A DNA stretch of 64,000 nucleotides from Candidatus Poribacteria bacterium (GTDB lineage: Bacteria > Poribacteria > WGA-4E > JAJDTR01): positions 3,072,001 through 3,136,000 of the forward strand of contig CBDCTK010000002.1 in assembly GCA_965222225.1 (NCBI GenBank). Reading direction: 5' to 3'. The position numbers were made by a program, and so were the translations under genes. Of this stretch, positions 8,255 to 60,209 are shown one piece after another (position 1 is the first letter of the stretch; every line of letters starts with the position of its first letter). The notes under the pieces are model-generated. The model ran no database searches. It saw nothing but the letters and a program-made list of their open reading frames with translations, and was not told the DNA's origin.

Positions 8255-8728
8255 TCATGTCTCGGATGCGTCGTCCGAACCAAAGACATATTTCGGATTG
8301 TAGGGGACATTAAAACGCTTCAAAAACTCAAGATATTCCTCTTTGAACGTCTGACGAGCATGATGTGCTTCCTGATTCTTGATATAACGTACAACACCGT
8401 GCAACTGAGCATGAGAATACGAGAACGCCGCGAAACCCGCCTGCCATTCAAATCGTCCGACAACCCATCTCTTTGTGTTAATAAATTTTGACGAATTTGC
8501 CTTGATGTCTCGCACCAGATCAGAGAGAGCAATGTCTGGAGCCATGCCGATGAGGATATGAATGTGATCGGGCATTGAATTAATCTGAATCACCGTCTGC
8601 ATTTTGCCAGTTATAATGCGGGTAATGTACTGGTGTGGCGCCTCTTTATGCTGTTTTGGAATGAGGCATTGTCTGCCTTTTACGGCGAAGACAACGTGCA
8701 GGTAAATTTGGGTGTACGTATCCGCCAT
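8255..8728 (-). mobile_element. tnpA: IS200/IS605-family Y1 HUH transposase TnpA
   Basis: YLHVVFAVKGR, MPDHIHIL (HUH), FEWQAGFAAFS, YIKNQ (catalytic Tyr); flanked by GCCCCAGCGGGG and CCTGTCGCCCCTCCGGGGC hairpins. Confidence 0.9.
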
Positions 8729-8755
8729 AGTGGCTTTCCTTAGAGGAACCGTTTA

Positions 8756-8975
8756 CCTGTCGCCCCTCCGGGGCTTTGGTGTTTGGAGTTTCGGCGTTGC
8801 TATACACCTTCAGGATCTCTATCGCACGGGATTTACTATCGCGCTCCCTTTTCAGTCGCTTGATGGTTCAACCCAACCTACAGGGACCTACACTTGCCGT
8901 CCCGCCGGGGATTTCAAAGGCTGGTAAGAGCTCTATCGCACTCCCTATCCGGTCGCTTGATCGGTGCGCACCCTA
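8756..8975. repeat. Composite REP array carrying 36-nt mini-element insertions
   Basis: CCTGTCGCCCCTCCGGGGCT; nested element at 8828-8863; AACCCAACCTAC; CAAAGGCTGGT[element]GGTGCGCACCCTAC. Confidence 0.8.
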
Positions 8976-10073
8976 CGAGACCGTGACCGGGGTGTCGGAA
9001 CGCCCGGAGTCGATGGCGGCTTGGACGGTGGCGCAGATGGCGCGTCCGGCTCGCGCGTCAAGGATGGTGTCGCCATCGGTGTCGATCGCTTGGGCGAAGT
9101 TCTCGGGGAGCTGGAAGTTGTTGTCGTCGGCGACGCGCTGATGGGGATATTCGGTCGCCAGTTGGCCCCGATAGTAGACGCTGACTTCGGGACGCGCCTC
9201 GCTGATGACGAGCGCGCCCTCCGATCCGAGCACATGAATCTTAATCTCGCCGATGTCCGGGTGGCTGGCGGCGCCGATGCGTCCGATGCACAGCGTTCCG
9301 AGGATGCCCTGATTCATCTCCAGCGTGACGGTCGCCAGGTCCTCAATGTCGTTGTCAACGCAGGCTTGATGGAAGTGCGCGGTGGTGCGGGCAAAAACCT
9401 GCCGAACGTCCACTCCGGTCAGCATGCGTATGTAGGCAAGCGGATAGATTCCCTCAATCTTCAGTTCCCCCATGGGATCGGCGCCCACGCCGCCATCTGA
9501 CCCATCTTTATGAGCATCAATCTGCCGCTCCAGCCAGTTGATGGCAGGCTTTCTGGGCTGGTTCGGATCTTTCGGAGGTCCCGCGTCCTTGGCGAAATAG
9601 AAATCGGCATGGACGGCGTAGGGCTCGCCTATCCTACCACTCTCCAACACCTGCTTGGCTTGGATCACGGCTGGCAGACAGTTGCGATTCCAGAGCAGAA
9701 ATTTCACGCGGTTGCGTTCGACCGCCTCAACGACGCGGTCACACTCGGAAACGCGGTTCGACATGGGTTTATCCTGCACAATGTGCAATCCGGCGTCGGC
9801 GGCACGCACGCTCAAATCGCAGTGGCGTTCCGCCTCCGAGCTTACTACGGCGACCTGCACGTTATAATCGGCGATGGCGCGTTCGACATCACGGACATAG
9901 AGGATATTGTAGTCGTCCGCGAACTTCTGATTCCGTTCATGCACCCAGTCGGGCTGATCGGCATCGTCGGCGACGACCACAGGCTCGAAACGGGGGTGTG
10001 CCGCCATCGCGACAGGGACATAGGCGTGCTTGACGACGCTTAGCGCGACAAATCGAAATTTAGGCGAGTTCAT
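8973..10073 (-). CDS. Gfo/Idh/MocA-family oxidoreductase
   Basis: AGLHIVQDKPM, ESGRIGEPY, DIEDLAT motifs. Confidence 0.88.
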   Translation of the reverse strand: MNSPKFRFVALSVVKHAYVPVAMAAHPRFEPVVVADDADQPDWVHERNQKFADDYNILYVRDVERAIADYNVQVAVVSSEAERHCDLSVRAADAGLHIVQDKPMSNRVSECDRVVEAVERNRVKFLLWNRNCLPAVIQAKQVLESGRIGEPYAVHADFYFAKDAGPPKDPNQPRKPAINWLERQIDAHKDGSDGGVGADPMGELKIEGIYPLAYIRMLTGVDVRQVFARTTAHFHQACVDNDIEDLATVTLEMNQGILGTLCIGRIGAASHPDIGEIKIHVLGSEGALVISEARPEVSVYYRGQLATEYPHQRVADDNNFQLPENFAQAIDTDGDTILDARAGRAICATVQAAIDSGRSDTPVTVS

Positions 10074-11022
10074 AGCTACCTCCGTTCAATCGTAGAGCTT
10101 GTTGGGACTGGAGAGAGGTCACAGCGGCTTCGGCAACTTGGAGCGCGGTTCGGTTTTCCGTGCCGCTAGCCGCGGGTTCGCGCCCGTCCTCAACCGCGGA
10201 CACAAATTCCTCAAGCTGAGCGGCCAACGCGGCTGAACCTTGACCGGTGTCGATGGCGCTCGGATCTCCGCCTTGGAACACGAGGTTACGGTTGTGATGG
10301 TCGTCGGCATAGGCGGCGCCTGTCGATCCGATGAGGGACAGCGAGAGGTAGCCGTCGCCGTAGGGAAGTGTGCGAGCCTCGTCTATCAGAGCCATTCCGC
10401 CATCGGGAAAGCCGAGATGCACTTGGGCGTAACCCGGTCTTCCGACCGCATAGACCTCGGTGGGTAATCCATCGAACAGCCAGATGGCGAGGTCGATTCC
10501 GTTGACAGCCCCTCCCAGCACTATGTCGTCGGCACTATTCGGGCCTGAAGGCTGCGACCAGCGGTGCATACGCAGCAACCCTAGCTCTCCCAGCTTGCCC
10601 TCCGCCAAGGCCTTTTTCACCGCCTGCTGAGACGGCATGAAACGCAGGGAGCTGCTCGCCATGAGCCGCACGCCGGCAGACTGGCAGGCGTCAACGACCT
10701 TTTCGGCATCCTCCACCGACGGGGCGAGGGGCGAGGCGGTCAGGACATGCTTGCCCGCCTCCGCCGCTTGCAAGGCTAGGCTACTTCTGGCATGATTGGA
10801 TTCGGGGATTATCACGGCATCGAATGCTTCCGCGCCCCTCTCTAACAATTTCTCGAGCGAGTTTGCCATGACTGATGCGCCGAGCGAGTCAGCGGCGGCT
10901 TGGGCGCGATCAGGCTGCGGATCGACCACGGCAACAAACGCCACATTCGGCAAACGCGGCGCCACAGTAGCGTAGGTGGCGGCGATTTCTCCACCGCCAA
11001 TCAGGGCTAATCTGGTTGTCAA
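10060..11022 (-). CDS. Gfo/Idh/MocA-family oxidoreductase (degenerate EKP motif)
   Basis: LALIGGG Rossmann start, AGKHVLTASPL, GKLGELG; overlaps start of downstream gene. Confidence 0.8.
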   Translation of the reverse strand: MTTRLALIGGGEIAATYATVAPRLPNVAFVAVVDPQPDRAQAAADSLGASVMANSLEKLLERGAEAFDAVIIPESNHARSSLALQAAEAGKHVLTASPLAPSVEDAEKVVDACQSAGVRLMASSSLRFMPSQQAVKKALAEGKLGELGLLRMHRWSQPSGPNSADDIVLGGAVNGIDLAIWLFDGLPTEVYAVGRPGYAQVHLGFPDGGMALIDEARTLPYGDGYLSLSLIGSTGAAYADDHHNRNLVFQGGDPSAIDTGQGSAALAAQLEEFVSAVEDGREPAASGTENRTALQVAEAAVTSLQSQQALRLNGGSYELA

Positions 11023-11366
11023 AGGATTTGCACCTCCGTGTTAAGGTTTATGTTTTCCACAAGAAACCGATGTGATGGGTTTTCGGACGATTTGTATTGA
11101 TTCAGTTCTGAGATTTTGCTAGAATTCCGGCAGTAAATTTTTGTGGCACATAGTCGTGCGGCGGCGGTTCGCGCATTGAACCCATGTGCCGGCGGTTTCA
11201 GTTTCCAATTGGTAAGTTTGTGCAGGTCGAGATAAGGAGAAGATCGCTATACGAACGCCATCGTCCTCGTTATTTTCTCGGTCGACTCCCCTACAGTATA
11301 CCTGATCCGAATCTGAAAGTGATAGTTTAATTTGTAGGTCTTACGCAGTCTTGACCGGATTGAATA

Positions 11367-12459: not shown

Positions 12460-12538
12460 CTATATACCTGTCGCCCCGCTGGGGCTAAAGTGCGTGGGGG
12501 TTCGCCGTTTCTATATACCTTCCGCCCCTCCGGGGCTT
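12460..12538. repeat. Tandem pair of CTATA(C/T)ACCT..CGCCCC...GGGGCT repeats
   Basis: Same doublet at 26995-27075 and 44150-44228; matches hairpins flanking tnpA. Confidence 0.8.
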
Positions 12539-12729
12539 ACAGAGACTAGTGTAGGGAGTTTATCTTGATTCACAGTCACGAAAGTAGATTCATACTCGCC
12601 AGTTGATTTTTCGCTTTTGCGAGGAAGGGAAGACCAACGACGGGAGGGGTAGCACAGGGTGTTTATTTAACCCAATAGGGATCTTCGCGAAGTCGTATTC
12701 AACACAAAGAGGAGGCTCTCGTAACGACC

Positions 12730-16775: not shown

Positions 16776-16876
16776 TTCTTTCGTTTTCCTGACCATTTGG
16801 CAAGCGTGTGGCGAACTGGAAAGGATTCAATCTGCTATTAAACAATCGAATATGGATCCTACTAACAATAAAAACT

Positions 16877-17350
16877 ATGCAAGACATTCCAAACCGAGGA
16901 TACCGTCAATTGCGGAAAGGTAGACGCTCCATACCGGACACCTACTACTCCCTTACGCTTACCACAATTGACAGAAAACCGCTTCTTGCAAACGCGGAGG
17001 TTGCAGACGTTATATTCGAAGCCTTTGATTAGCTCGAAACCAATAAATGGTGCAGATGGTTTTGTCTCGTCGTAATGCCAGATCATATCCATTCCGTCAT
17101 TCAACTGGCGGGTAACAAGACCCTTTCGAGACTCATTCAATCCTTCAAAAGTTTCACAGCGAGACGGATTAACACCCACTTGGGACGCAGCGGTTCGCTC
17201 TGGCAAGCGGCTTATCATGACCACGGCATTCGGCACGACGAGTCATTGAATGCGATTATTCGATACTGTTACGAGAATCCTGTGAGGAGCGGATTGGTGA
17301 AGGAGGCGAGGGATTATCCGTATTGGCGGTCTAAATTCGAGATGGGGTGA
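16877..17350 (+). pseudogene. REP-associated tyrosine transposase (RAYT) with in-frame TAG at 17030-17032
   Basis: RQLRKGRRS..YYSLTLTT, VVMPDHIH, SFKSFTAR, WQAAYHDHGIR, YCYENPVRSGLV..YPYW; both ORF pieces are in the same frame. Confidence 0.88.
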
Positions 17351-17400: not shown

Positions 17401-17538
17401 TAGGAGCGATGAAGCGAGCGGGAATTTCTATCGCCCTCGTTGTTCACTCGGTTGATCGATAGAGATCCTCTCAAGGTCGCGATTCTTTCGTTTTCCGTCG
17501 TTTTGGCCAAGGAGTCGCGACCTAGAGATCGCTCCTAC
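17401..17538. repeat. REP doublet downstream of RAYT; first REP split by nested mini-elements
   Basis: TAGGAGCGA|insert 17410-17468|TCTCAAGGTCGCGA, then TCGCGACCTAGAGATCGCTCCTAC. Confidence 0.8.
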
Positions 17539-17589: not shown

Positions 17590-18378
17590 ATGGAAACAAT
17601 GACTATGGCGTTGATAGATGAACAAAAGCGGGAATTTGACGAGAACGGTTATGTTATCGTTCGCAACCTCCTCACGCGCGAGGAAGTGCAGGCGGTCGGG
17701 GGTCGCGCCGATCAGATTGCCGTGGGCGAAATCGCGCAGCCGGTGTCTGCCGTCCAAGTTGAACCGGCAATTAAACGCAAAGAAGAGACGGCAAAATCGA
17801 AAATCGACTCTATCCGCAAGCTGAGTAGCGTGGTTCGCACAGATCCGATTATGCTCGCGCACGCGACGAATGCCAAAATTTTGGACATCTTGGAAGGCTT
17901 AATCGGTCCCGATATCAAACTATTCGACGATCAGCTATTCATGAAATCGTCCGCGCACGGATCGCGCAAGAATTATCACCAGGATTCCAATTCGAGCGTG
18001 ATGTCGCAGTATGTACCCCATAGCCTCGTGAGTTGCTGGGCGGCATTGGATGACGCGACAGTAGAAAACGGTTGTCTGTGGTTTATTCCGGGGAGTCACA
18101 AATGGGGACGCATCGCCGTTGAACGTGAGCGGGAGATTGAAAGGTGGGCGCTTGCCGGTGCGTTGGAAAACGAGGTGCCTATTGAACTGAAAGCCGGCGA
18201 TTGTAGCTTTCATCATAGCCTTTTGTTGCACTGCAGTCAAGCCAATCGTTCGACGACCCGGCGTCGGGGGTATGCCACGCAGTACATGAGTTCGAAAACG
18301 AAGTATACGGGTGAAGGCACTCCGTTTAGGTGCAATTTCCTCTTGCTGCGCGGCGAAGAATTTCCGGGATGTGTATAG
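17590..18378 (+). CDS. PhyH-family dioxygenase
   Basis: QLFMK..YHQD, ENGCLWFIPGSH, HHSLLLH. Confidence 0.9.
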   Translation: METMTMALIDEQKREFDENGYVIVRNLLTREEVQAVGGRADQIAVGEIAQPVSAVQVEPAIKRKEETAKSKIDSIRKLSSVVRTDPIMLAHATNAKILDILEGLIGPDIKLFDDQLFMKSSAHGSRKNYHQDSNSSVMSQYVPHSLVSCWAALDDATVENGCLWFIPGSHKWGRIAVEREREIERWALAGALENEVPIELKAGDCSFHHSLLLHCSQANRSTTRRRGYATQYMSSKTKYTGEGTPFRCNFLLLRGEEFPGCV

Positions 18379-18410
18379 GCGGATCGAACGGTTCGCGGGT
18401 CGGGCTAGAA

Positions 18411-18650
18411 GGGATTTCTATCGCGGTCACTATCCATTCCCTTGATCGCACGGGATTTTCTATCGCCTTCGTTAATCACTCAGTTGATCGTTATTCACTC
18501 GTTTGATTGTTCGCTTGATTTCACTCTGGGGCTTTGGTGCTTAGGGCATCGGTGCTACTATACACCTGTCGCCCTTATAGGGCTTTCAAAGGCTGGTAAG
18601 AGCTCTATCGCGCTCCCTATCCGGTCACTTGATCGCAGTGCGCACCCTAC
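18411..18650. repeat. Nested 36-nt mini-elements plus REP composite
   Basis: Inner copy 18452-18487 sits within outer copy TCGC-AC|TC-GT-TATTC-AC-TC-GT-TTGA; another copy lies inside CAAAGGCTGGT..GCAGTGCGCACCCTAC. Confidence 0.85.
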
Positions 18651-18681
18651 AACTGATACATGAAACCAAAAAAAGGAGACA

Positions 18682-19458
18682 ATGATTATGGCATTGACAG
18701 ATGAACAAAAGCAGGAATTTGACGAGAACGGTTATATTATCGTTCGCAACCTACTGACCGACGAAGAGGTACGCGCGGTCGGGGGTCGAGCCGATCAGAT
18801 TTCCGTAGGGGAAGTTGTCCCGGAGGAGGGGTTTGGCATCCAAGTTGAACCGGCAATTCAGCGCAAGGAAGAGGTTGCAGAATCGAGACTTGAATCTATC
18901 CGCAAACTCGGCGGGTTGGTCCGCAAAGATCCGGTCATGCACGCGCACGCTACTAACCCGAAGATTTTGGATGTCTTGCAAGACCTAATTGGTCCCGATA
19001 TCAAGCTGTTCGGCGATCAACTGTTTATGAAATCGTCCGCGCACGGATCGCGCAAGAACTATCACCAGGATTCCAATTCGTGGAGACCGTATGTTCCGTA
19101 TAGTCTCGTGAGTTGCTGGGCGGCACTGGACGACGCTACGGTAGAAAATGGTTGTCTGTGGTTTATTCCCGGGAGCCACAAATGGGGGCTGCTCGACGTT
19201 GAACGTGAGCGAGAGATTGAGAAGAAGGCGCTTGCGGGACCGCTGGAAAATGAGGTGCCGATTGAACTGAAAGCCGGCGATTGCAGTTTTCATCACAGCC
19301 TTACGTTGCACTGCAGCCATACAAATCGATCGAAGACCCGGCGTCGCGGGTATGCCACGCACTACATGAGCGCGAAAACGAAGTATACGGGTGAAGGTAC
19401 TCCGTCCAAGTCCAATCATCTGTTGCTGCGCGGTCAGGAATTTCCGGGGTATGTTTAG
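18682..19458 (+). CDS. PhyH-family dioxygenase (tandem paralog)
   Basis: Highly similar to 17590-18378; YHQD and distal His conserved. Confidence 0.9.
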   Translation: MIMALTDEQKQEFDENGYIIVRNLLTDEEVRAVGGRADQISVGEVVPEEGFGIQVEPAIQRKEEVAESRLESIRKLGGLVRKDPVMHAHATNPKILDVLQDLIGPDIKLFGDQLFMKSSAHGSRKNYHQDSNSWRPYVPYSLVSCWAALDDATVENGCLWFIPGSHKWGLLDVEREREIEKKALAGPLENEVPIELKAGDCSFHHSLTLHCSHTNRSKTRRRGYATHYMSAKTKYTGEGTPSKSNHLLLRGQEFPGYV

Positions 19459-22441: not shown

Positions 22442-23077
22442 GTGGAATATATTCCTATATTTCAACTATTTCAACCTTATGAGTTTGGCGAGAGGGAGAA
22501 AGCTTCGCTGGACAGAGACGGACCCTTTCTCCTGCCCGGCATTCTGACGCCGGGGGCTTGCGAGCGGTTGACGGCGTCGCTGTCGCACATTGAAGACCTG
22601 ATGCCCTCCGCCGTCAAAGGGCAAGAGCCTAGCAGCTTTGCCGCGGAGTACGACTCCTATCTGGAGAGCCTCATCCTGCATCCACAGATGTGTGATTTAG
22701 TACGCGGAATTCTGGGTGAAGAGATTCGATTTGACCACTGCGTGACGCTCAACCGCCCGGGCGGAAACGGGGGTTTGCATTGGCACAGCCACGAATACGC
22801 GGATGATGATCCGAGCTTAGGTTTTTTGCGCATCTTCTTCTACGTCAACGGGTTTGAGGCTGGCGACGGCGGCTTGAAAGCCGTGCCGGGCAGCGTCGTC
22901 TTGATGTGGACGCACGCCGCGCACGCGGTCAGTCCGAGACGCGCGAGCAGCGATATGCGATGGACGGTGGTGTACGCCTACCGAAATCCGGGCAGCCCCA
23001 CTCTGGCGCGTTGGCTTACGCCGGAATTTGAACAAAAGCAGATTCACGGCGCCAAGCGTCTCATGAACCTATATTGA
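22442..23077 (+). CDS. PhyH-family dioxygenase with a 44-aa in-frame deletion (possibly inactive)
   Basis: GTG start after GGAGG; WHSH; AVPGS joins VVLMWTH directly, unlike paralog 23259-24017. Confidence 0.75.
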   Translation: MEYIPIFQLFQPYEFGEREKASLDRDGPFLLPGILTPGACERLTASLSHIEDLMPSAVKGQEPSSFAAEYDSYLESLILHPQMCDLVRGILGEEIRFDHCVTLNRPGGNGGLHWHSHEYADDDPSLGFLRIFFYVNGFEAGDGGLKAVPGSVVLMWTHAAHAVSPRRASSDMRWTVVYAYRNPGSPTLARWLTPEFEQKQIHGAKRLMNLY

Positions 23078-23258
23078 GTCATGTAGGTTGAGTTGAACAG
23101 AAACCGCATAGTTCATCGGTAGAATCGATACTGCCTCTTTCTAAGTGAATGAGAAAGCGAGATAGCAACGGTGAAACCCAACTCTCAAGCCGGTCGCGTG
23201 TAACGCTTTGCTGACCACTAATCACTAGCCACTGGTCACTGATTTTCAGAGGATTCCC

Positions 23259-24017
23259 GTGGAACATATCCCCATATTTCTACCTTACGAGTTTGGCGAG
23301 AAAGAGAAAGCCCTATTGGACAAAGACGGGCACTTTCTCCTGCCCGGCATCCTGACGCCGCAGGCTTGTGAGCGACTGAAGGCGTCGTTGTCGCACATTC
23401 AAGACTTGACCCCGTCCGCTGTCGAAGGTCACAAGCCCAACCATTTTGCGGCGGAATACGACTCCTATCTGGAGGGCCTCCTCTCGCATCCGCAGATGCT
23501 CGACTTGGCGCGGAGAATTCTCGGTGAGGAGATCCGATTTGACCACTGTGTGACGCTCAACCGCCCGGGCGGCAACCGAGGCTCGCATTGGCACAGTCAT
23601 GAATACGCGGATGACAACCCTAGCTTGGGTTTTGTTCGCATCTTCTTCTACGTCAACGGTTTTGAGGTTGATGATGGCGGCTTGGAAGCGGTGCCGGGCA
23701 GCCACCACTACCGGGACGCAAAAATCAAGGCAGAAACGGACGAGGCGCTAAAGACGGGATGGATGGCGGGAAAGACGCACCCCTTGACGGGGGAACCGTT
23801 GGAGATACAGGATTTGACCGCTCCGGCGAGAACAGTCGTCTTGATGTGGACACACGCCGCGCACGCAGTCAGTCCGAGACGCGCATGCAGCGATACGCGA
23901 TGGACCGTGGTATACGGTTACCGAAATCCGGGCTGCCCATCGGCTCCGCGTTGGATTACCCCGGAATTTGAAGCGAAACGGATTCCCGGCGCCGAGGGGT
24001 TGATGGGCCTCTATTGA
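23259..24017 (+). CDS. PhyH-family dioxygenase
   Basis: HWHSHE, GGLEAVPGSH, WTHAAHAV. Confidence 0.8.
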   Translation: MEHIPIFLPYEFGEKEKALLDKDGHFLLPGILTPQACERLKASLSHIQDLTPSAVEGHKPNHFAAEYDSYLEGLLSHPQMLDLARRILGEEIRFDHCVTLNRPGGNRGSHWHSHEYADDNPSLGFVRIFFYVNGFEVDDGGLEAVPGSHHYRDAKIKAETDEALKTGWMAGKTHPLTGEPLEIQDLTAPARTVVLMWTHAAHAVSPRRACSDTRWTVVYGYRNPGCPSAPRWITPEFEAKRIPGAEGLMGLY

Positions 24018-24341
24018 GCCATGTAGGTTGGGTTGAACAAGAAATATCATATAAAAGCAAATAGCGTGCTATTTCTCAAGTAAACTGGCGTGCGAGACAG
24101 TAATAGTGAAACCCAACACTGTAGGAGCGATCTCCGAATCGCGACCTTTTAGAAATCAGTGCTGTAGGGAGGAATCAGCGATTAAGCGAGTGAACAACGA
24201 GGAATAAAGCGACTGGTCAAGGAGCAGGATTTTCTATCGCCTTCCTTATCCAGTCAGTTAATCGCTCACTATCCGCTCGCTTGATCCCAACCTACGGGCT
24301 ATTCACCCCATAGCCCTAATACCAATCAGGAGTGATTTTCA

Positions 24342-26915: not shown

Positions 26916-27160
26916 GAGCTTGTTTGACAAATAGGTGGCAAAACAATTTTCGGACACCTGGGCCAGGGCTTTTATCATGTTTTTGTTGCCGCCCCCTATA
27001 CACCTGTCGCCCCGCTGGGGCTTGAGTGCGCAGGATTTTGCGGTTTCTATAAACCTTTCGCCCCTCCAGGGCTTTCAAAGACTGGTGCAGGGGTTTTATC
27101 TTAATCAAAGATTAGTTTCAGGGCAGTGGCTCTGCTCGAAATAAGTTTTCAAACAGGTTC
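26916..27160. mobile_element. IS5-type MITE enclosing a REP doublet
   Basis: GAGCTTGTTTGACAAA ... TTTTCAAACAGGTTC resemble the ends of the IS5 element at 60210-61096. Confidence 0.7.
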
Positions 27161-28348: not shown

Positions 28349-28665
28349 GGATTCGCAGAAGCGGGAATTGGTGATTTGATAATTGAAGATTGCATGCTAG
28401 CGCTCCCAAAGGCTGGTGAGATCTCTATCGCGGTCGTTATTCACTTCCTTAATCGCAGTGCGCACCCTACAGGAATTGTATCGCAGAGGGAGGGAATAAA
28501 CCGCCCTACCACAGTGCCTCTAGTAGGTTGGCTTGAACGATCTCGCTCGATCCTTGCCAGAGCGCCATCTTGGATCGTCCTAGCTAAAACAAACCTTTCA
28601 ACACCAAACAAGAGGTAGCGGTTAGACGGAGTGTTTTAGGGTACATATTGCACGGAGTCCTCGGT

Positions 28666-28950: not shown

Positions 28951-30166
28951 TTATCAAGCCTATCTCAATGAGCAGGCGCCGGATCTAAGCGAAATTCATC
29001 GCGGGCCTCAGGCACGCCAAAGGCGGCGGAGAGCCGCTGTCCACAATAATCGCGGTCTCGCGTACCATGAAAATGCCCATTATGACCGCGCCGTCAAAGC
29101 TTTTACCAAAGCCATCGGCCTAAGACCAGATTTTGCTTTAGCCTATCGCAATCGAGGTCTAGCCTACCGGAGCACGGGCGAGGTGGACCGTGCGATTGGA
29201 GACTTTGACACGGCGATAGAACTGAACCCGGATTGTCCCGAAGCCTATTACAATCGCGGAATGGCTTATTACGAAAGGCGCGACTTCGAGTCTACTATTA
29301 GAGACCAAAGTAGGGCGATAGCGCAGAAACGGGATTACCCCGACGCTTATACCAGCCGCGGGAACGCTTACCGCCATATCGGGGACATCGACCGCGCTCT
29401 TGCAGACTATAACACGGCGATAGAGCTTAGCCCAGATGATGCCGGCGCTTACAATAATCGCGGCGTAGCTTACGCGAAACAGTGCGAGTATGACAGCGCC
29501 GTCGAGGACTTCTCCACAGCGATAGCGTTGAAATCTGACGATTCCGACGCCTACAATAATCGCGGGAATGCCTACAGCGACAAAGGCGATTTTGACCGCG
29601 CCATCCAAGATTACACCAAAGCGATAAACCTCAATCCGAATGATGCCGTAGCCTATAGCAATCGCGGGGGCGCTTACCGCAACAAGGGCGAGGTGGACCG
29701 CGCTATAGAAGATTGTAATACGGCGATACAACTAACGCCAGACTATGCGGACGCCTATACGAATCGCGGCGCAGCTCACCGCAACAAAGGAGAGGTTGAT
29801 CGTGCCATTGAAGACTATAACACGGCGATAAACTTAAAACCCGATTTCGTCGAAGCCTATTACAACCGCGGCGTGGCTTACATCAACAAGGGGCATTACG
29901 ACCGCGCCATCGAAGACTTCACCAAAGCGATAGGTTTGAAGCCCGACCTTGCCGTAGCCTATCACAGCCGCGGCGAATCGTGGTTACGCCTGAAAGTGTG
30001 GGAGAAAGCCAGGTTAGACTTGACGGTTGCTGTGGCGATGGGCGTAAATATCATCAACGAGTTTCGTGACGACAAAGGGGGCTCCCTGGATTTGGACGGG
30101 AAAAACGGTGTTCAGTTACCGGAGGATATCGCTGAACTGCTGAGATGGCAAGGGTACGAGGGATGA
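28922..30166 (+). CDS. TPR-repeat protein with short antitoxin-like N-terminus
   Basis: About ten 34-aa repeats AY(N/Y)NRG.AY..KG..DRAI.D...AI.L.P; overlaps the toxin stop. Confidence 0.88.
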   Translation: MNTTTKAEFDYQAYLNEQAPDLSEIHRGPQARQRRRRAAVHNNRGLAYHENAHYDRAVKAFTKAIGLRPDFALAYRNRGLAYRSTGEVDRAIGDFDTAIELNPDCPEAYYNRGMAYYERRDFESTIRDQSRAIAQKRDYPDAYTSRGNAYRHIGDIDRALADYNTAIELSPDDAGAYNNRGVAYAKQCEYDSAVEDFSTAIALKSDDSDAYNNRGNAYSDKGDFDRAIQDYTKAINLNPNDAVAYSNRGGAYRNKGEVDRAIEDCNTAIQLTPDYADAYTNRGAAHRNKGEVDRAIEDYNTAINLKPDFVEAYYNRGVAYINKGHYDRAIEDFTKAIGLKPDLAVAYHSRGESWLRLKVWEKARLDLTVAVAMGVNIINEFRDDKGGSLDLDGKNGVQLPEDIAELLRWQGYEG

Positions 30167-35499: not shown

Positions 35500-35602
35500 G
35501 TTCTAACTCCCTTGCCCGATGTTCCTTCTAGGCTGGAGTTTACAAAGGCTGGTGAGCAGTGCCCACCCTACAAAGCCATAGTTCTAGAGATAAAAAGGGT
35601 TT

Positions 35603-37620: not shown

Positions 37621-39006
37621 TTATCTTATCCGGAACGCGTAGAGTTTTGCGTTGCGGAGCTGAAATCTAAGGCGAACCTTCTTGCCTCGGAGCCGATCCA
37701 AATCTCGGCTCTCCGCCCATTTCACGGGGGAGTCCGTGACCGTGGCACCAACAGGTTCACTGACGGCTTGCTGTTCGCCCGCCTCATCCAGAATTGCCAC
37801 GCGAATTTCCCCGTCATCCCTCACATCGGCGGTTATGCCGACGATTTCTCCGTCAAAGTCTAACGCCTCGGTTGTTATGAGAGCTTCGGTCCCCGCTGAG
37901 ACGGGTTCGTAGCCTGCCCAGCCATCCGGTCGGAGTGTGGCAAGCGCAAGGTATCCTTTGCGCCAGTCGAAAAAGTACCAATCGCAGGCGCCGTAATAAA
38001 TCCGAATCTCATCCCCCAAGAAAATCGGTGCGGAGGCGAAGATAGTTCCCCAGTCATACGGCATCTCCCCATAGCGTGCAGCACCTCCCGGGGTGTTCCC
38101 GATAAGCGGCACACCTTCTTGGATGCGATGCCATGTGAAGGTGTCTGGACTCCATGCCAATTCGACGTGCTGCTTCACACCGGCGGCGGAATCTTTCGGG
38201 TCTTCTGGGTACGTCATCATCCCCAACAATCCGATATAGATGCCGTGTGTCGGAAACACAATCATATCGTGAGCTTGAAGACGCGAGTTGGGGCCCACAA
38301 GAACCGTTTTATCTTCGGTCCACTTCACAAAATCGGGAGACTCCGCCCGCGTGACCAGTCGAATCCCATCCGCGTGTTGGCGCGTGATGCCCACATATTT
38401 GCCCAGACTTGGCGCCCAGAAGGCGTTGGCATGGGTGCCGTGCGCCTCAATCTCCGCAATCGGGATGGGATCATCCCAATGCAAGCCGTCCGCCGAAAAC
38501 ACCACTTCCATTTGCGGATTACCGCAATGGAACATTTTATAGCGCCTCGCCGGATCGGTCTCGCGATAGTCCTTGAAGACACCGGCACCGTGAATCTCGC
38601 GCACGAGGAGATTGTTCCGTTTGTCCCCATCAAACTCAACCAGACCGATATCGGGTTTGTCCCAACGGATGCCGTCGGTTGAGACCGCGTAGCAAAGCCC
38701 CAGTTCCCGATGGTCGGGTTTGACATCCGAGTAGTTGAGCGACTCGGGATTGCGCTTCTCCGGCGGTACACAGGTCACCCGCTCGTCAATGATGAACGGA
38801 TTGTACCAACACTTGTAGATTTCATCGTCTTCATCATAAATGACGTTGGCGTACACATTGTCGAAACGGGGTTCCCACGGTTTATCCTCGGCGAAAAGCG
38901 GGTTCTGCGGGTGCTTGGAAACTTCACCAACGGTGAGTTTTGCGTCCACGGTCTCGTCAATGATGCGAGAATCCAGCACTAGGTGCCGGGTTTGTTCGGT
39001 ACTCAT
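37621..39006 (-). CDS. Beta-propeller glycoside hydrolase-like protein
   Basis: YKCWY, YAVSTDGIRWDKP, SADGLHW, LRPDGWAG, LRFQLRNAKLYAFR. Confidence 0.8.
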   Translation of the reverse strand: MSTEQTRHLVLDSRIIDETVDAKLTVGEVSKHPQNPLFAEDKPWEPRFDNVYANVIYDEDDEIYKCWYNPFIIDERVTCVPPEKRNPESLNYSDVKPDHRELGLCYAVSTDGIRWDKPDIGLVEFDGDKRNNLLVREIHGAGVFKDYRETDPARRYKMFHCGNPQMEVVFSADGLHWDDPIPIAEIEAHGTHANAFWAPSLGKYVGITRQHADGIRLVTRAESPDFVKWTEDKTVLVGPNSRLQAHDMIVFPTHGIYIGLLGMMTYPEDPKDSAAGVKQHVELAWSPDTFTWHRIQEGVPLIGNTPGGAARYGEMPYDWGTIFASAPIFLGDEIRIYYGACDWYFFDWRKGYLALATLRPDGWAGYEPVSAGTEALITTEALDFDGEIVGITADVRDDGEIRVAILDEAGEQQAVSEPVGATVTDSPVKWAESRDLDRLRGKKVRLRFQLRNAKLYAFRIR

Positions 39007-39092: not shown

Positions 39093-39237
39093 GGGGATCT
39101 CTATCGATCAACTGAGATCAAGCGAATGAATAGTGAGCGCGATAGAGATCTTATAGCGAAGGCGATAGCAAATCCTGCTCACTATCCCTTAATCCCACGC
39201 CGGGGCCTCAAAGGCTGGTGGGCAGTGCCCACCCTAC
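39093..39237. repeat. Triple-nested mini-elements adjoining REPs
   Basis: Minus copy 39118-39153 inside another minus copy, inside a split plus copy; followed by CAAAGGCTGGTGGGCAGTGCCCACCCTAC. Confidence 0.75.
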
Positions 39238-39311
39238 AAATGTACTTTGCGGATTGAGTTTGGCAGTCGGTTACAACTAGCCCTAAACCGCGAAATCGCG
39301 CCTGTGAAGGA

Positions 39312-44149: not shown

Positions 44150-44340
44150 GCTATGTACCTGTCGCCCCGCTGGGGCTTAGGTGCGTGAGGTATCGGCGTT
44201 CTATACACCTGTCGCCCCTCTAGGGCTATTAGAAGTTGGTGGAATTCTATGGGGACTTTATCGCGTAGGATTTACTAACGGGATTTGCTATCGCGCTCAT
44301 TATGCATTCGCTTGATCCCTCGTTATTCACTCCGTTGATA
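44150..44340. repeat. REP doublet followed by stacked/nested mini-elements
   Basis: Several leaders (GGAATTCTAT, GGGGACTTTATCGC, GGATTTACTA), a complete copy at 44280-44315, then a tail. Confidence 0.75.
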
Positions 44341-44352
44341 GGTTTCGTCGGC

Positions 44353-45945
44353 TCAATTCTCAGGCGGGAGGAGGCGAAAGCTGTAGAGTTTTGCGCCTTT
44401 CAGACGAAAGCGAAGGCGGCACGGTTGTTCCGCTTGATTCAAGCCGCGGTCCCCCCAGCGAACAGAATGGCGCACGTGGTCACCCCGTATAGGCGTGCAG
44501 GTTTCCGCCGAGAATCCGGGCTGCACCTGCCCGTCAGGGGACAGCACCTCGACGGCAAGGCTGCCGCCGCTCGCGTCGACGTTCACTTCGAACCTGCCAT
44601 CTGGCAGTTGCAGGGGAACGGTTTCAACCACGCCGTCATCCGCATCGAGCGAGACAAAGCCGTCCAACCGCCAACTGGCTCTACCGATGGACATCACTTT
44701 GTCCTTGAGCAGCTCGCCGTGCGTCTGCGTGCTGCCGGTGTAGTACCAGTGTATCCCGTCATCCTCCACCAAGGGTTCTTTGGCGGTGAAGAGAATCATG
44801 CCCGAATCGAATTCGCCTCCCTTCCCGCGCGGGAGAATCGGGGTTCGGTCTTCAAAATGGCGCCAGTTTACGCCGTCTCGGCTGTAGATGAGTTGCGCAT
44901 CAATCGGACCATCGACGGCTGCCTGCCCGGGCACGGTATTCACGATGTCCTCGGTGACGTATAAGACGCCCAAGAGACCGATATAGATGCTGGGGATCTC
45001 TATCGCACGAGAATTTCTATCGCCCTCGCTATTCACTCGGTTGATCCCTATTCGGTCGTTTGGTCGATAGGGAAAGCCGGACATGTTGTGAAACTCCGCG
45101 CGGATAGCGCCGTAGCGCTCCTTGCCGAGCGCGTCGTCTTCCGGATTTGGTTCCAGGATGGGCGTTATCTCCGACCACCCGCTTTCCAATCTCTTGCTCT
45201 CGCTGTATTCGATGTGACGACGCTCCCCTCCCCTCCCGACCAGCATATAAGAGAGGTAGCGGTCAGCCCTTTCATCGCATACCACATTCGTAGGTCCCTC
45301 ATTTGCGCGCTCTATCACCGGCTGTTTCAATCCCTCATCGCTCCAACGGATGCCGTCGGGCGACGTAATTAGGAAGATGTTCCGGTAGCGGCGGCAAAAA
45401 CCGATCGCTTTGTAACGCTCCCTTTCGTCCCGCGGGTCATCCTCAAGAAAAACGCTGGCGCCGTGCAAGTCCCAAACGATGTTGTTATTCGGGCTTTCGT
45501 CAAAATCGAATATCCCCAGATTCGGTTTGGTCCACGTCAGCCCATCATCGCTCTCGGCATAGCAGAGCAGGTCGCCGATGTCGCTGCCCCGGAAATGCCT
45601 TCCGTCATCGTCGGTGCGGCGTCCCATGTACCGGGTAGCGTCTCCAGCGCCGGTGCGGGGCACATATAAGCCGGGAATGCGGTGTCCGTGATCCGGATCC
45701 ATGCGAGCCATATACCACATCTGGAATTTGTTCGTCCGATTGTCGTGCAGCACGGTTCCCAAGAGATTGACCCGCTTGGTTCTCTCGGGACCGTCATTTT
45801 CCCACGGCTTGTCGGGTTCCGGTGCTATGACCGGATGCGGTGTTTTGGTCGCCGGATGGAGCGTGCGGGTGACGCCGCGCTTCGTCTCAATGAGTGCATC
45901 GTCTACAAATAATTCTGTGCCGTAACCGAGTTCGTGTGGTTTCAT
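44353..45945 (-). CDS. Beta-propeller glycoside hydrolase-like protein carrying a 24-aa in-frame mini-element insertion
   Basis: ELFVDD, YAESDDGLTWTKP, YSRDGVNW, LRFRLKGAKLYSF; insert PNDRIGINRVNSEGDRNSRAIEIP between FPYR and SIYIG. Confidence 0.82.
   Translation of the reverse strand: MKPHELGYGTELFVDDALIETKRGVTRTLHPATKTPHPVIAPEPDKPWENDGPERTKRVNLLGTVLHDNRTNKFQMWYMARMDPDHGHRIPGLYVPRTGAGDATRYMGRRTDDDGRHFRGSDIGDLLCYAESDDGLTWTKPNLGIFDFDESPNNNIVWDLHGASVFLEDDPRDERERYKAIGFCRRYRNIFLITSPDGIRWSDEGLKQPVIERANEGPTNVVCDERADRYLSYMLVGRGGERRHIEYSESKRLESGWSEITPILEPNPEDDALGKERYGAIRAEFHNMSGFPYRPNDRIGINRVNSEGDRNSRAIEIPSIYIGLLGVLYVTEDIVNTVPGQAAVDGPIDAQLIYSRDGVNWRHFEDRTPILPRGKGGEFDSGMILFTAKEPLVEDDGIHWYYTGSTQTHGELLKDKVMSIGRASWRLDGFVSLDADDGVVETVPLQLPDGRFEVNVDASGGSLAVEVLSPDGQVQPGFSAETCTPIRGDHVRHSVRWGDRGLNQAEQPCRLRFRLKGAKLYSFRLLPPEN
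44992..45063. mobile_element. Two nested 36-nt mini-elements inside a CDS
   Basis: Inner 45009-45044; outer 44992-45008 + 45045-45063; removal restores FPYRSIYIG. Confidence 0.9.
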
Positions 45946-45991: not shown

Positions 45992-47240
45992 CGGAATTAG
46001 TAGCTTGTAGCTTTTAGACTGACGACAAACATAAAACTTGGTACCCTGTCGTAAATCTTTTCGTCACACGTAGATGTCCATAGTGACTATTCTTCTCGTA
46101 GGAGTTTGCTATGGACATTTTGAATCTTATGAAAGAGTTTCCAAATCAAGAATCTTGTCTCAGATTTATAGAGGAAAAACGTTGGAAGGACGGTGTTTGC
46201 TGTATCCACTGTGGCAGTGAAAAAGTTGGACGCAAGAACAGAAACGACATTACTACTGGTTGGAATTGCTACGATTGTGAATCTAGCTTTTCGGCTACAG
46301 CAGGAACCATCTTCCATGGTACCAAGATACCTCTCCAGAAATGGTTTTTGGCTATCTCAATCCTTTCCAATGCCAAGAAAAACATATCGAGTTGTCAGCT
46401 TGCTCGTGACTTGGACATGAATCAAAAGTCCGCTTGGTATATGGCAATGCGCCTCCGTGAGAAAATGAGTGATAGTGATGAATTGCTGAAAGGGATAGTT
46501 GAAGCAGACGAAACCTATGTCGGCGGCAAACCCAGAGCAAAATCTAAGAGAGGTAGAGGCACAAATAAATCTCCCGTCATCGGCGTAGTCGAGAGAGGCG
46601 GTCGGGTGGTTGCTAAATTCATGAAGGTTCTATCTGGTGAAAATATCAGAGAATTCATCCTTAGCAATGTCTCACCCGATGAGTCTATTCTTATGACTGA
46701 TGAATTTCGCTCTTACAATAGTCTGGACGAAGATATCGAAAGACATGTTATCCATCACCAAGAGAGATATGTTTCTGAGGACGGCGTAACTCACACCAAT
46801 ACCATCGAGTCGGTTTGGGCTTGTGTCAAGAGGTCATTCTACGGAACGCATCATCACTACAGCAAGAAGTGGCTGCCACTGTATATCATGGAGTCTTGCT
46901 GGAAATATAATCGCAGAAAAGATGATGAGATTTTCATAAGATTTTTTGATGAATGCTTCACCTGAGCCACATGAATTGTTTGGCTATCGGTATATTCTGT
47001 CAACGACAGCATCATGGTATGATGTAAATCCCATAGTGTTGGAAATTAAAATCCCGCAGATAACCCGCAATGCTCCCGCGAGCATGTACAAACGCTTGGT
47101 CAACATGATATGCCTCCATTTCTCTCTTATAGAGATGTATTTTAGTGTGAATCAAGATTCCGAACACTGTCTAAAGTTATTGTACATTAAGAAAAGAAAA
47201 GCAAGCAAATCAACCAAAAAGCAGTTAACTACTAAGTCCC
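45992..47240 (+). mobile_element. IS1595-family insertion sequence
   Basis: Imperfect inverted ends CGGAATTAGTAGCT / AACTACTAAGTCCC; AT-rich; contains transposase 46111-46965. Confidence 0.75.
46111..46965 (+). CDS. IS1595-family (ISXO2-like) DDE transposase
   Basis: Zn ribbon CIHCG..CYDC, VEADETYVGG, MTDE, HTNTIESVW. Confidence 0.93.
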   Translation: MDILNLMKEFPNQESCLRFIEEKRWKDGVCCIHCGSEKVGRKNRNDITTGWNCYDCESSFSATAGTIFHGTKIPLQKWFLAISILSNAKKNISSCQLARDLDMNQKSAWYMAMRLREKMSDSDELLKGIVEADETYVGGKPRAKSKRGRGTNKSPVIGVVERGGRVVAKFMKVLSGENIREFILSNVSPDESILMTDEFRSYNSLDEDIERHVIHHQERYVSEDGVTHTNTIESVWACVKRSFYGTHHHYSKKWLPLYIMESCWKYNRRKDDEIFIRFFDECFT

Positions 47241-56220: not shown

Positions 56221-57015
56221 CTAACGTGGCGGGACTTCTTGGGCCACGTGATTTACCCCTTTGAAATTAAAACATCCCGGTGCGAACTCCCGCATACGAT
56301 GTATCCACGCTTCACGCTTGGGGTTCCCTCTGGAATTCGCTACCCAAGATGTGTAGTCGACCGCGTTGCCGATAAGCTGTTTCCGGCAGGCTTCTTCCGC
56401 TTCCGGTGTCTTGGGGTTATTGTAGTAGCAGAGGACGCACATGCGGCGGTCAATTGAACCACCCCAACTGGCATGCCAGCAGCGGAGGTCGAAAGCGACA
56501 ACATCGCCCGGCCTCGATTCACACACATAGGCTGGAACCTCGGGAATGCTTAACCCGCATCGGTCCAGATTCCGCCGAAGTTCGTTGTGGAGGGGCTGTC
56601 TATGCGACCCTGGAATCACCCGAAGCGCGCCGCCTTCTGCACCCATTGGCTGCAAATAGTAGGCGAATTTGACGCCGTAGTGATGCTGCACACTACCCGT
56701 GTCGGGATGCCAGCCCGTGTCCCCCACATATCGGTTAATATTGGAAATAGTAGCCAAGACGTCTTCGCCGTAGAGTTGCTCGGCTATTTCGCAGAATCGC
56801 GGGTCTTCCAGCAACGAGGAAAAGAAGGGGGTGCGCGGTCCCATCGTCAACAGGCGATGCCTACGCGTTCCATCAAATGGTGCATGACAAAACTCGGACT
56901 CCATTGCACCCTCGAATTCAGCGTTGATAGTCCGCAGTTCGTCCGGACCGAACAACTCCCGGAAGATCAGAAATCCGAAAGTTTGAAACTGAATGAGTTG
57001 TTGTTCCGTGAGCAT
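56221..57015 (-). CDS. PhyH-family dioxygenase
   Basis: FQTFGFL, WHPD, ALRVIPGSH, PGDVVAFD..WHAS. Confidence 0.88.
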   Translation of the reverse strand: MLTEQQLIQFQTFGFLIFRELFGPDELRTINAEFEGAMESEFCHAPFDGTRRHRLLTMGPRTPFFSSLLEDPRFCEIAEQLYGEDVLATISNINRYVGDTGWHPDTGSVQHHYGVKFAYYLQPMGAEGGALRVIPGSHRQPLHNELRRNLDRCGLSIPEVPAYVCESRPGDVVAFDLRCWHASWGGSIDRRMCVLCYYNNPKTPEAEEACRKQLIGNAVDYTSWVANSRGNPKREAWIHRMREFAPGCFNFKGVNHVAQEVPPR

Positions 57016-57154
57016 GATGTTCCTCCTCTTTCACACAAGTTTTTTATTCGGCGAACAGCGGTTGACGGTTAGGGAATGCCTGCACTCCCTCCGCTAGCGA
57101 GTACAAACACGACACATCGTGTTTCTAATGCTGGCCTTTCAGGTTTGAAGGGGA

Positions 57155-57904
57155 TCAAAGGAGCCCAGGGGCCAGCTCTCGCATCTGATTTATCCAGCGT
57201 TGGCGTTTTGGATGAGCTTCGGAATTCGCAACCCAAGGTGTGTAGTCAATCTCATTAAGGACAAGCCGTTCCCGGGTAGCTTCTTTCGCTTCTGGCGTCT
57301 TGGGATTGTTGTAGTAAACCATGACACACATGCGACGGTCGTTCGAGCCTCCGCAACTGGCATGCCAGCAGCGGAGGTCGAAGGCAACTACATCGCCCGG
57401 CTCGGATTTGCACACGTAGGCCGGCACGTCGGGGATGCTCAACTCGGACTTGTCCAGATTCCGCCGCAGCTCATCGTGAAGAGGCTGCTTATGCGACCCT
57501 GGAATCACCCGAAGCGCGCCGCTTTCTGCACCAATCGGTTCCAGATAGTATGCGAATTTTACACCGTACTGATTCTGCACACTTCCCGTATCGGGATGCC
57601 AGCCCGTGTCCCCAACATAACGGTTGATATCAGAAGCAATTCCGAAGACGTCTTCGCCGTAGAGCTGCTCGGCTACTCCACAGAATCGCGAGTCTTCCAG
57701 CAACGAGGTGAAGAAGGGAGTCTGTGGTCCCATTGTCACCAGCCAATGCCGACGCGTTCCATCGAACGGGTCATCCTGAAACGCAGCTTCCATCGTTTCC
57801 ATGAACTCAACGTTGATGGTTTCGAGTTCGTCTGGACTAAACAAACTCCGTAAGGTCACGAATCCGAAGGTTTGAAAGTGAATGAATTGCTGTTCCGTGA
57901 GCAT
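57155..57904 (-). CDS. PhyH-family dioxygenase (tandem paralog)
   Basis: Highly similar to 56221-57015. Confidence 0.88.
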   Translation of the reverse strand: MLTEQQFIHFQTFGFVTLRSLFSPDELETINVEFMETMEAAFQDDPFDGTRRHWLVTMGPQTPFFTSLLEDSRFCGVAEQLYGEDVFGIASDINRYVGDTGWHPDTGSVQNQYGVKFAYYLEPIGAESGALRVIPGSHKQPLHDELRRNLDKSELSIPDVPAYVCKSEPGDVVAFDLRCWHASCGGSNDRRMCVMVYYNNPKTPEAKEATRERLVLNEIDYTPWVANSEAHPKRQRWINQMRELAPGLL

Positions 57905-59964: not shown

Positions 59965-60092
59965 TGCTACATACCTGTGGGATCCCTATCGCACTCGTTA
60001 TCCACTCGCTTGATCGCTGCTGGCGCTTTCAAAGGCTGGTGCGCAGGGGATCTCTATCGCAGTCATTATTCATTCCTTTGATCGCACCCTAC
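59965..60092. repeat. Two REPs, each interrupted by a mini-element
   Basis: ATACCTG|59978-60013|TCGC.. and CAAAGGCTGGTGCGCAG|element|CGCACCCTAC. Confidence 0.8.
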
Positions 60093-60209
60093 AAACTATG
60101 TCATCGTCCGCGGCGGTTAGAAACCAGCAATCTTTACGCTTCCATTGCCATATTGCCTCACATAATGTCACATAATGTCACAATTTTTTAATTTATCTTA
60201 TCGCGATAA

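Follow-up and report, generated by a model that had tools for sequence, protein, structure and literature searches.

A 36-nucleotide REP-like repeat nested within its own copy in a protein-coding gene of Candidatus Poribacteria

The 64,000-nucleotide (nt) stretch of a Candidatus Poribacteria genome analyzed here (the window) contains a gene on the reverse strand that is open throughout and carries a 72-nt insert at 44992-45063 (Table 1). The insert is in frame and encodes residues 295-318 of the host protein, PNDRIGINRVNSEGDRNSRAIEIP. It consists of an outer copy of a 35/36-nt repeat that is split by an inner copy at 45009-45044. The repeat belongs to a large family, and its likeness to repetitive extragenic palindromic (REP) sequences, together with the way in which it may spread, is the subject of this report. 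An initial annotation of the window, made from its letters, had read the insert as two nested insertions and had seen in them a relative of the insertion sequences (IS) of the IS200/IS605 group.

A Pfam search with the host protein returned 0 families. The AlphaFold 2 model (mean predicted local distance difference test [pLDDT] score, 76.2; predicted template modeling [pTM] score, 0.80) was compared with the Protein Data Bank by Foldseek, and the best matches were beta-1,2-mannoside phosphorylases (E value, 5.5e-11), followed by glycoside hydrolase family GH43 and GH32 enzymes. The protein is thus predicted to combine a five-bladed beta-propeller with a beta-sandwich, as in glycoside hydrolases and phosphorylases. 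Residues 296-318 have pLDDT values below 50 and lie between strands 282-293 and 320-330 of the model, which places the insert, as predicted, in the turn of a beta hairpin of the propeller-type fold. The two copies may be tolerated as 12 + 12 extra residues in a loop-forming turn. The host gene has 46 matches of its own family within the genome. Public data over the region comprise four runs, all available as Logan contigs and two of them from RNA libraries. Contigs cross from the insert into the gene on each side (X15 record 8, 45019-45500; X17 record 15, 44965-45046; X3 records 17 and 24), and no joint that skips 36 or 72 nt occurs among the contigs of these runs, every one of which breaks at the repeat. 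This evidence is compatible with retention of the insert; contigs broken at the repeat cannot show transcription or rare alleles.

The inner copy sits between the AC and the TC of the outer one, as the initial annotation had described. Joining 44992-45008 to 45045-45063, that is, removing the inner copy, restores a full outer copy that scores 49.8 bits against the position weight matrix (PWM) of the family, compared with 56.5 bits for the inner copy. The four variable dinucleotides of the restored outer copy (AC, CC/GG, GT) are all in Watson-Crick register. Those of the inner copy (CC, GC/AC, GG) include one C.A pair, which is a G.T wobble on the opposite strand.

The history of the insert can be read from its orthologues. 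Forty-one related genomes were searched with the host protein, and 10 of them have an orthologue. In nine of these, namely, G001 and G003-G009 from the same genus and G010 from the same family, the protein match is split between residues 1-293 and 319-530, whose coding segments abut, and the DNA alignment leaves 0 bases between the flanks. The tenth, G002, gives a continuous match and has exactly 36 bases at the site, a single copy encoding SNDQIGSAIEIP that is unbroken (GGAAGT on the coding strand) exactly where the outer copy of the window holds the inner one. Given inserted lengths of 0 (nine genomes), 36 (G002), and 72 (window) and an uninterrupted copy in G002, both steps must be net gains of 36 nt, and alignments of DNA and protein agree that neither step duplicated target bases. 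None of the orthologues has an unrelated loop at this position. The claim of two nested insertions, each adding 36 nt and 12 amino acids in frame, is thereby borne out. The form that had been predicted for the empty allele, with ATGCT joined directly to TCGATA and translated as FPYRSIYIG, is not what the relatives carry; their empty alleles read, for example, TATGGCAGCATT on the coding strand, and their proteins read FPYGSIYIG, VPYDGIYVG, etc. The paralogue from which that spacing had been taken does read FPTHGIYIG.

In the tree of the host gene, which is a single gene, the window genome (G000) is sister to the other nine genomes of the genus, and G002 falls within a clade that is otherwise empty at the site. 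An approximately unbiased (AU) test on the same gene rejects a clade of G000 and G002 (p = 0.005). The two genomes share the position of the copy and its subfamily, AC.CC (28 of 1,067 copies), and the window and G002 copies each have one to three private departures from the consensus. Two readings of the site history remain: two independent hits, or an ancestral copy that was precisely lost at least four times. A short conversion tract at the G002 site may also be conceivable, because the first dozen bases on one side of the G002 insert resemble those of the window. Elsewhere in the window genome, paralogous ORFs (open reading frames) of IS-associated appearance at G000:C2:2517039 and 4078932 have the element at the same site, as a single copy in one and a nested pair in the other, and form a second series of one versus two copies.

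The family to which these copies belong was recovered by repeat finding as about 20 similar stretches of 40 nt in the window. Conservation begins 7 bases 5' of the heptamer CTATCGC, extends through the TC that follows TTGA, and is gone outside these limits. The consensus (+) strand reads GGGATYT-CTATCGC-NN-TC-NN-TATYC-NN-TC-NN-TTGA, then TC, and the tail at its start occurs in two forms, GGGATYT (7 nt) and GGGATTTN (8 nt). In the genomic census, the T of the TC behind the element is conserved in 96% and the C in 90% of cases. The ends, GGGATYT and TTGA, are not inverted repeats, and the element has no coding capacity. It also has neither the GTAG nor the CGTC tag of REP families; the nearest motif is GATAG within GCGATAG on the complementary strand, which we call S. 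The genome comprises 5.70 Mb in two contigs, of which C1 has no match in a plasmid collection. On both strands together, the core pattern has 489 exact matches and 1,067 matches with three or fewer mismatches, and the PWM census finds 1,136 matches above 15 bits in the chromosome versus 0 in the reversed-genome control. The total for the genome is about 1,100-1,200 copies.

A hairpin in the element is indicated by covariation. Pairs between the variable dinucleotides are Watson-Crick in 70, 90, 92, and 83% of copies, compared with 30-49% expected if the positions were independent. Among the 25 uninterrupted copies of the window, 98.3% of cells are paired, versus 77.2% in shuffles (0 of 500) and 21-49% in slid controls, and the same copies hold 41 double-sided changes versus 10. 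The pairs that are not Watson-Crick are almost all A.C on the + strand and, hence, G.T on S, and copies in which all four pairs form number 880 of 1,067 when read on S versus 572 on the + strand. Structure had been assigned earlier to the strand that carries GA, and it is this strand whose non-Watson-Crick pairs are wobbles. The covariation defines a putative fold of the S strand in which a 3-bp stem leads into two 2-bp segments on either side of a GA/GA mismatch, closed by a 5-nt loop (GRATA). Tandem GA opposite GA may form sheared pairs, and we infer their presence here rather than having computed it. Mutual information between the variable dinucleotides and the flanks is only 0.03-0.05 bit, which probably comes from amplified composites, and the idea that the dinucleotides are a guide-like code was rejected.

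The copies are mostly extragenic: long ORFs span 52 of the 1,229 census rows (outer copies recovered by peeling are counted among them), versus 706 of 1,200 random sites under the same crude ORF criterion. Every one of the 10 genomes of the genus has the element (545-1,216 copies with at most one mismatch), as do 4 of 4 genomes of one genus from another family (184-205 copies). G010, from the same family as the window genome, has three copies, and a search of 26 further genomes of the order did not find the element. A scan of a species collection returned at least 101 stretches, all from Candidatus Poribacteria among the matches listed.

Nesting of the kind seen in the host gene is common in this genome. 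Removal of the 1,083 best copies, 36 nt each, re-creates 134, then 11, and then 1 full copies. A search of flexible length finds 257 nesting events, with net lengths of 36 nt (134 events), 34 nt (66), 35 nt (33), and others (24); part of this spread arises because the tail has two forms. Between 146 and 257 copies are thus nested in other copies. Among the outer copies re-created by removal of 36 nt, the point between the first variable pair and TC, which is the one used in the host gene, accounts for 35 events, the loop before YC for 20, and the inside of CTATCGC for 47; a further 31 are opposite-orientation insertions after CTATCG. When the flanks of the 1,083 copies were sorted by motif, 295 copies lay in or beside another copy, three other repeat families accounted for 139, 79, and 67, and the remaining 503 lay elsewhere, so that 580 of 1,083 are in or against one of four repeat families, their own included. 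One 72-nt composite (outer AC.AC, with inner CT.GT in the loop) is nearly identical at 16 places, e.g., C2 3896073, 5050605, and 5627955. Some nested pairs may have been amplified as units.

The junctions have one constant side and one variable side. On the coding strand, the empty host-gene alleles have GC, GT, or AC where the filled alleles have GA. Paralogous empty sites, with flanks 92-100% identical, read G-C, A-C, T-C, or CG-C. In two large nested classes, the GC of the outer consensus became TC on the + strand, or GA on S. The target in the paralogous empty sites and nested classes is G followed mostly by C, or else by A or T. Only this G (90%) is common to the targets, and the base after it becomes A or is lost. 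Among the 30 commonest same-orientation classes (122 events), 46 events lose no outer base and 35 lose one. No junction class has a duplication, and comparison of the targets revealed no conserved tetra- or pentanucleotide. On the S strand, the classes have in common that the 5' end of the element, A-TCAA, follows G, that the base after G is replaced or lost, and that the far junction shifts by one or two bases. Often, 0-2 further target bases are missing, and the T behind the element usually arrives with it. No single junction rule (36 nt before TC, 36 nt between G and C, or 37 in and 1 out) fits all classes, and all three were rejected. The proposal that insertion occurs before TC, or 3' of GA on the structured strand, holds for the inner event, in which the outer copy supplies the TC, and fails for the outer event, since GA occurs in 0 of 9 empty alleles. 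Among intragenic sites, 3909956 is a clean gain of 36 nt, and two further cases are complex. Intergenic insertion sites are too diverged to be aligned with G002, which is about 85% identical in genes.

The orientation of the copies follows the replication-linked GC skew, as a single-strand mechanism would predict. Local skew (±50 kb) is positive on the strand that carries the + consensus for 736 of 1,083 copies, and the concordance holds with both flanking genes forward and with both reverse (skew-positive regions, 197 of 300; skew-negative regions, 282 of 382). Orientation is independent of the direction of the flanking genes. Because orientation tracks skew and not gene direction, it points to a replication-linked process at the DNA level rather than to selection on transcripts. 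GC skew itself switches sign many times along C2 (200-kb bins), and element orientation tracks these patches; the switches suggest numerous inversions or rearrangements, or else assembly joins.

Table 1. Positions in the window of the host gene, the nested copies, and the Y1 genes
Feature	Position	Strand	Remarks
Host gene	44353..45945	(-)	ORF of 530 amino acids
Outer copy, 5' part in + consensus orientation	44992..45008	(+)	Tail GGGGATCT, CTATCGC, first variable pair AC; uninterrupted counterpart in G002
Inner copy, 36 nt, between AC and TC of the outer copy	45009..45044	(+)	PWM 56.5 bits; missing from the G002 single copy and the nine empty alleles
Outer copy, 3' part (TC CC TATTC GG TC GT TTGG)	45045..45063	(+)	From sequence and PWM
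Dinucleotide TC after the outer copy	45064..45065	(+)	T replaces the G found in most relatives
Second nested cluster in the window	18399..18506	(+)	Copy 18452-18487 inside another copy at the same AC^TC point, beside copy 18410-18445
Paralogue without insert, FPTHGIYIG	37621..39006	(-)	Spacing reference of the initial annotation
Intact Y1 gene of REP-associated tyrosine transposase (RAYT) type, 157 amino acids	8255..8728	(-)	Own flanking repeat, CACCTGTCGCCCC-NNN-GGGGC
Second Y1 gene, broken by TAG	16808..17350	(+)	Family in relatives flanked by GTAG-tagged REPs; 36-nt copy at 17420-17455

Five genes, or remnants of genes, for Y1 nucleases of the HUH type occur in the genome, two of them within the window. 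The intact gene, of the RAYT type, has inverted 36-nt copies on both sides, and the copy at 8211-8246 interrupts its downstream REP. It was considered as the cognate RAYT and rejected, as its homologues are flanked by another REP even where the element is absent: they occur in four genera, one with 0 copies of the 36-nt element, and all are flanked by the CACCTGTCGCCCC-NNN-GGGGC hairpin. A 36-nt copy interrupts that hairpin in the window, G001, and G005; the hairpin is intact in G002, G004, and G009. The second gene of the window was rejected as the cognate transposase on the same kind of evidence, its family being flanked by GTAG-tagged REPs. The gene, at 16937-17269, is interrupted by an in-frame TAG and has the direct repeat AGGTCGCGATTCTTTCGTTTTCC on both sides; its relatives are intact. 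A remnant at C2:1545573-1545899 was also rejected, as its intact relatives are flanked by a different REP, the GTAG-tagged GGTGSGCA-N-TGCSCACC, which is often interrupted by 36-nt copies. The remnant at C2:3560325-3560519 has inverted 36-nt copies, but its intact relatives do not, and it too was set aside. A scan of 148 intervals for ORFs between inverted 36-nt copies gave no further candidate, and no TnpB-type domain was found in the genome.

The element thus has no evident transposase of its own and behaves as a secondary invader of REP hairpins. Two of the invaded families occur in the window. The repeat TATACACCTGTCGCCCC-NNN-GGGGCT, found at 8740-8800, 12460-12550, 18558-18597, 26996-27086, and 44152-44240, is the flanking REP of the intact RAYT gene and its homologues and is often present as two tandem copies with a spacing of about 51 nt. 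The other family, a palindrome with a GTAG tag (reverse strand TGTAGGGTGGGCACTGCCCACC), occurs at 6497-6530, 35539-35572, and 39205-39238 and is interrupted at 18618-18651, 28438-28471, and 60026-60094. The 36-nt element often inserts in this palindrome, which flanks a third RAYT family in relatives.

The element is mobile, inserts as single units without duplication, prefers REP hairpins and its own copies, and takes its orientation from the replication strand. We propose that it is a non-autonomous, untagged REP-like element whose single units would be moved as single-stranded DNA, in trans, by an HUH nuclease. We give this reading a probability of about one in two, and its chemistry, taken alone, deserves less. 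One version of that chemistry, which we put forward tentatively and with more doubt than belief, makes the 36-nt single hairpin a parasite of parasites, in which a REP-directed HUH nuclease would join the element to a free 3'-OH after G, with one exact and one sloppy junction. In the mechanism that we favor, a RAYT- or IS200-like nuclease would open the S strand at two points, the G/A-TCAA boundary and the end of the tail. The 5' end of the element would be joined to the 3'-OH of G, possibly on a nascent strand paused at a hairpin, and the other junction would be made less exactly. An acceptor of this kind, a nascent strand paused at a hairpin, would account for the exact 5' junction, the imported A, the loss of 0-2 bases at the other junction, and a tail of 7 or 8 nt. 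It would also account for the preference for REPs and for the element's own copies and for the presence of the S strand on the nascent lagging strand.

Several observations count against this proposal. No Y1 gene is flanked by the 36-nt element as its own repeat, and the three RAYT-type families checked have other REPs. In eight relatives, no 36-nt copy lies closer than 900 nt to the fourth Y1 type, and the Y1 matches L022 and L024 have none nearby in this genome. The folded S strand is the complement of the G-rich strand, i.e., it has the sequence of the nascent lagging strand and not of the lagging-strand template used by IS608 and ISDra2, and the capture of a 3'-OH is a step that we infer. 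The junction classes are heterogeneous, with one large class losing two bases, and the paralogous "empty sites" are not true ancestors. The gain at intragenic site 3738219 is 30 nt, not 36. At L107 (G000:C2:2965619-2965654), a copy encoding SNERIASAIEIS stands where G003 and G005 have an unrelated coding segment of 132 nt; the right end of that segment is faintly like the element, and replacement or deletion may have occurred instead of a simple insertion. The reconstructed targets of 732 isolated copies fold hardly better than random 44-mers (-3.89 versus -3.72 kcal/mol). ViennaRNA DNA folds of the 36-nt and 72-nt stretches are likewise no better than shuffles (z, +0.6 to +1.4), a result that we use neither for nor against the hairpin because the energy rules ignore GA/GA pairs.

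Of the other explanations, the classical "peel and paste" transposition of IS200/IS605 elements, favored by the initial annotation, survives best. It would have the + strand active on the lagging-strand template, a single-stranded circle, a dimeric TnpA, and a short fixed target. The lack of target duplication, the covarying hairpin, and the presence of Y1 genes in the genome are all as this mechanism would have them, and so is the placement of 736 of 1,083 copies with the + consensus on the G-rich strand. In addition, the + strand ends in TTGAT, the pentanucleotide that stands 5' of ISDra2 insertions (PMC2806898); this is a lead only. The element has one hairpin instead of distinct left and right ends, however, and no motif is conserved 5' of the + strand copy (beyond position -8, information is about 0). 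Replacement or loss of target bases is not what a precise HUH cut-and-join reaction would produce, the wobbles mark the opposite strand, and neither an associated transposase gene nor TnpB was found. What stands of the IS200/IS605 signature is therefore a resemblance, made up of insertion without duplication and replication-linked orientation by skew; the fixed target, the two distinct ends, and the element's own enzymes are missing. We regard this mechanism as doubtful here.

Spread without any transposase seems to us unlikely, whether it were to occur at hairpins through slipped replication or template switching or between repeat-rich sites through gene conversion with microhomology (ATC, GATC, ATCCC) as the guide. 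It would suit the 0-3-nt fuzziness of the junctions and the lack of a dedicated enzyme, and targets often share a few bases with the ends of the element (CTATCGC in self-nesting, GATCGC in one GTAG-tagged REP, ATCCCG at 3738219). Unit-length gains nevertheless dominate (134 of 36 nt and 33 of 35 nt among the 257 events), the host-gene site has no evident homology to the element, and the copies are under strong selection for a paired stem, which suggests that a protein recognizes it. Very unlikely is RNA-templated, target-primed spread, in which a reverse transcriptase would extend a 3'-OH with a copy of the element's transcript. Such synthesis would fit junctions of which one is precise and the other is variable, with an extra variable base (n), but the sole reverse transcriptase match in the genome is a weak one to RVT_1 (E value, 6.1e-6; 27.5 bits), orientation is independent of flanking-gene direction, and an Rfam search found 0 known RNA families in the window. 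That the insert is not mobile DNA at all, and is a chance repeat-like, lineage-specific loop of 24 amino acids or a local tandem duplication, deserves next to no credence: its halves do look at first glance like duplicated blocks of 17-18 nt, but the genome holds more than 1,000 copies versus 0 in the control, a single-copy intermediate and nine empty alleles are in hand, and the same nesting point recurs 35 times elsewhere.

The mechanism by which REP-type sequences multiply "remains unclear," in the words of one passage of a paper on the subject (PMC3479197). Alleles with zero, one, and two copies, which occur naturally at one site of a conserved gene, together with some 250 self-nested copies whose pre-insertion sequence can be read from the consensus, fix the unit (35/36 nt), the absence of duplication, the acceptor after G, the traveling base, and the replication-strand bias, and these are testable constraints on the enzyme and the chemistry. 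Such elements can add loops of 12 amino acids to working proteins. They can also confuse gene calling and assembly, as seen in the contigs of the public runs that break at the repeat. If the parasite-of-parasites reading were true, single REP-like units, and not only the doublets known as REPINs, would be replicators, and they would provide the proteins of these sponge-associated bacteria with a steady source of 12-residue loop insertions.

Some further features of the window were recorded. Immediately upstream of the host gene, at 46111-46965, is an ORF of 284 amino acids for an IS1595-family transposase (DDE_Tnp_IS1595, E value of 2.1e-36, plus a zinc ribbon), and the collinear blastn matches to G002, among those listed, stop at the end of the host gene (45945). 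At 29034-29973, there is a repeat with a period of 102 nt, present as five copies of a 226-nt reference with 61-71% identity, which is probably a repetitive protein-coding segment. Blocks of 140-300 nt that are 76-86% identical at a spacing of 0.8-3 kb (6698-11087, 17592-19388, 22467-24039, and 56276-57464) fit tandemly duplicated paralogous genes.

In the literature searched, two 12-mers of the element do not occur, and matches to a 10-mer are unrelated primers. No paper on REP, miniature inverted-repeat transposable elements (MITEs), or IS200 that names Poribacteria was among the matches listed; supplements, such as Additional file 3 of PMC3733652 on intragenic REPs, may hold comparable cases. 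Unlike MITEs, the 36-nt element has no terminal inverted repeats and no target-site duplication. The nearest precedent for tiny nested mobile repeats may be the small dispersed repeats (SDR) of filamentous, heterocystous cyanobacteria, reportedly described by Elhai et al. in 2008 as repeats of 21-27 nt that are apparently mobile and nested, with no known transposase. This comparison is a lead only, and the SDR differ in phylum and sequence. Rickettsia palindromic elements (RPE), to which the insert had also been likened, are palindromic repeats that lie in frame inside protein genes and add a peptide, and it is in this effect alone that the likeness holds. RPE-1 is several times longer than the 36-nt element. 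The short RPE-4 and RPE-6 are CGTC-tagged REPs, as stated in part of the work of Di Nocera et al. (2013, PMC3733652). The element studied here has no CGTC tag.

Elements of the IS200/IS605 group are about 20-40 times larger than the 36-nt element. With IS608 and ISDra2, as far as the relevant portions of PMC2806898 and Messing et al. (2012, PMC3479197) describe them, it shares insertion without duplication, folded single strands, a replication-strand bias, and the presence of Y1 enzymes. ISDra2 inserts 3' of TTGAT, according to a passage in Pasternak et al. (2010, PMC2806898). In contrast, the 36-nt element has one hairpin, no fixed target of 4-5 nt, replaced or lost target bases, and no tnpA or tnpB within or beside it. 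REPINs are likewise non-autonomous, and single-copy Y1 transposases are believed to mobilize them in trans; the present genome also has RAYTs with REPs. In the section of Bertels and Rainey (2011, PMC3116915) that bears on this, the doublet is argued to be the mobile unit and singlets to be dead remnants. The 36-nt element does not fit that view: single units were inserted twice in one gene, and no RAYT is flanked by the 36-nt family.

The closest likeness is with REP sequences as a class. In the parts of PMC3733652 that describe them, they range from 20 to 40 nt, occur in hundreds to thousands of copies, are mostly extragenic, and form imperfect stem-loops with G.T pairs, and the 35/36-nt element agrees with them in each of these respects. 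The same source mentions families without a flanking transposase gene, untagged stem-loop families, and intragenic, in-frame REPs and REP dimers encoding 20-30 amino acids. The 36-nt element differs in that it has neither GTAG nor CGTC, in that its stem is broken into 3 + 2 + 2 bp by conserved GA/GA mismatches, and in that its copies enter their own hairpin, and those of three other REP families, at defined points, with alleles of zero, one, and two copies defining its ends. We conclude that the element is REP-like and untagged; its interrupted hairpin is unusual, it nests in itself at defined points, and its junctions depart from the standard Y1 scheme.

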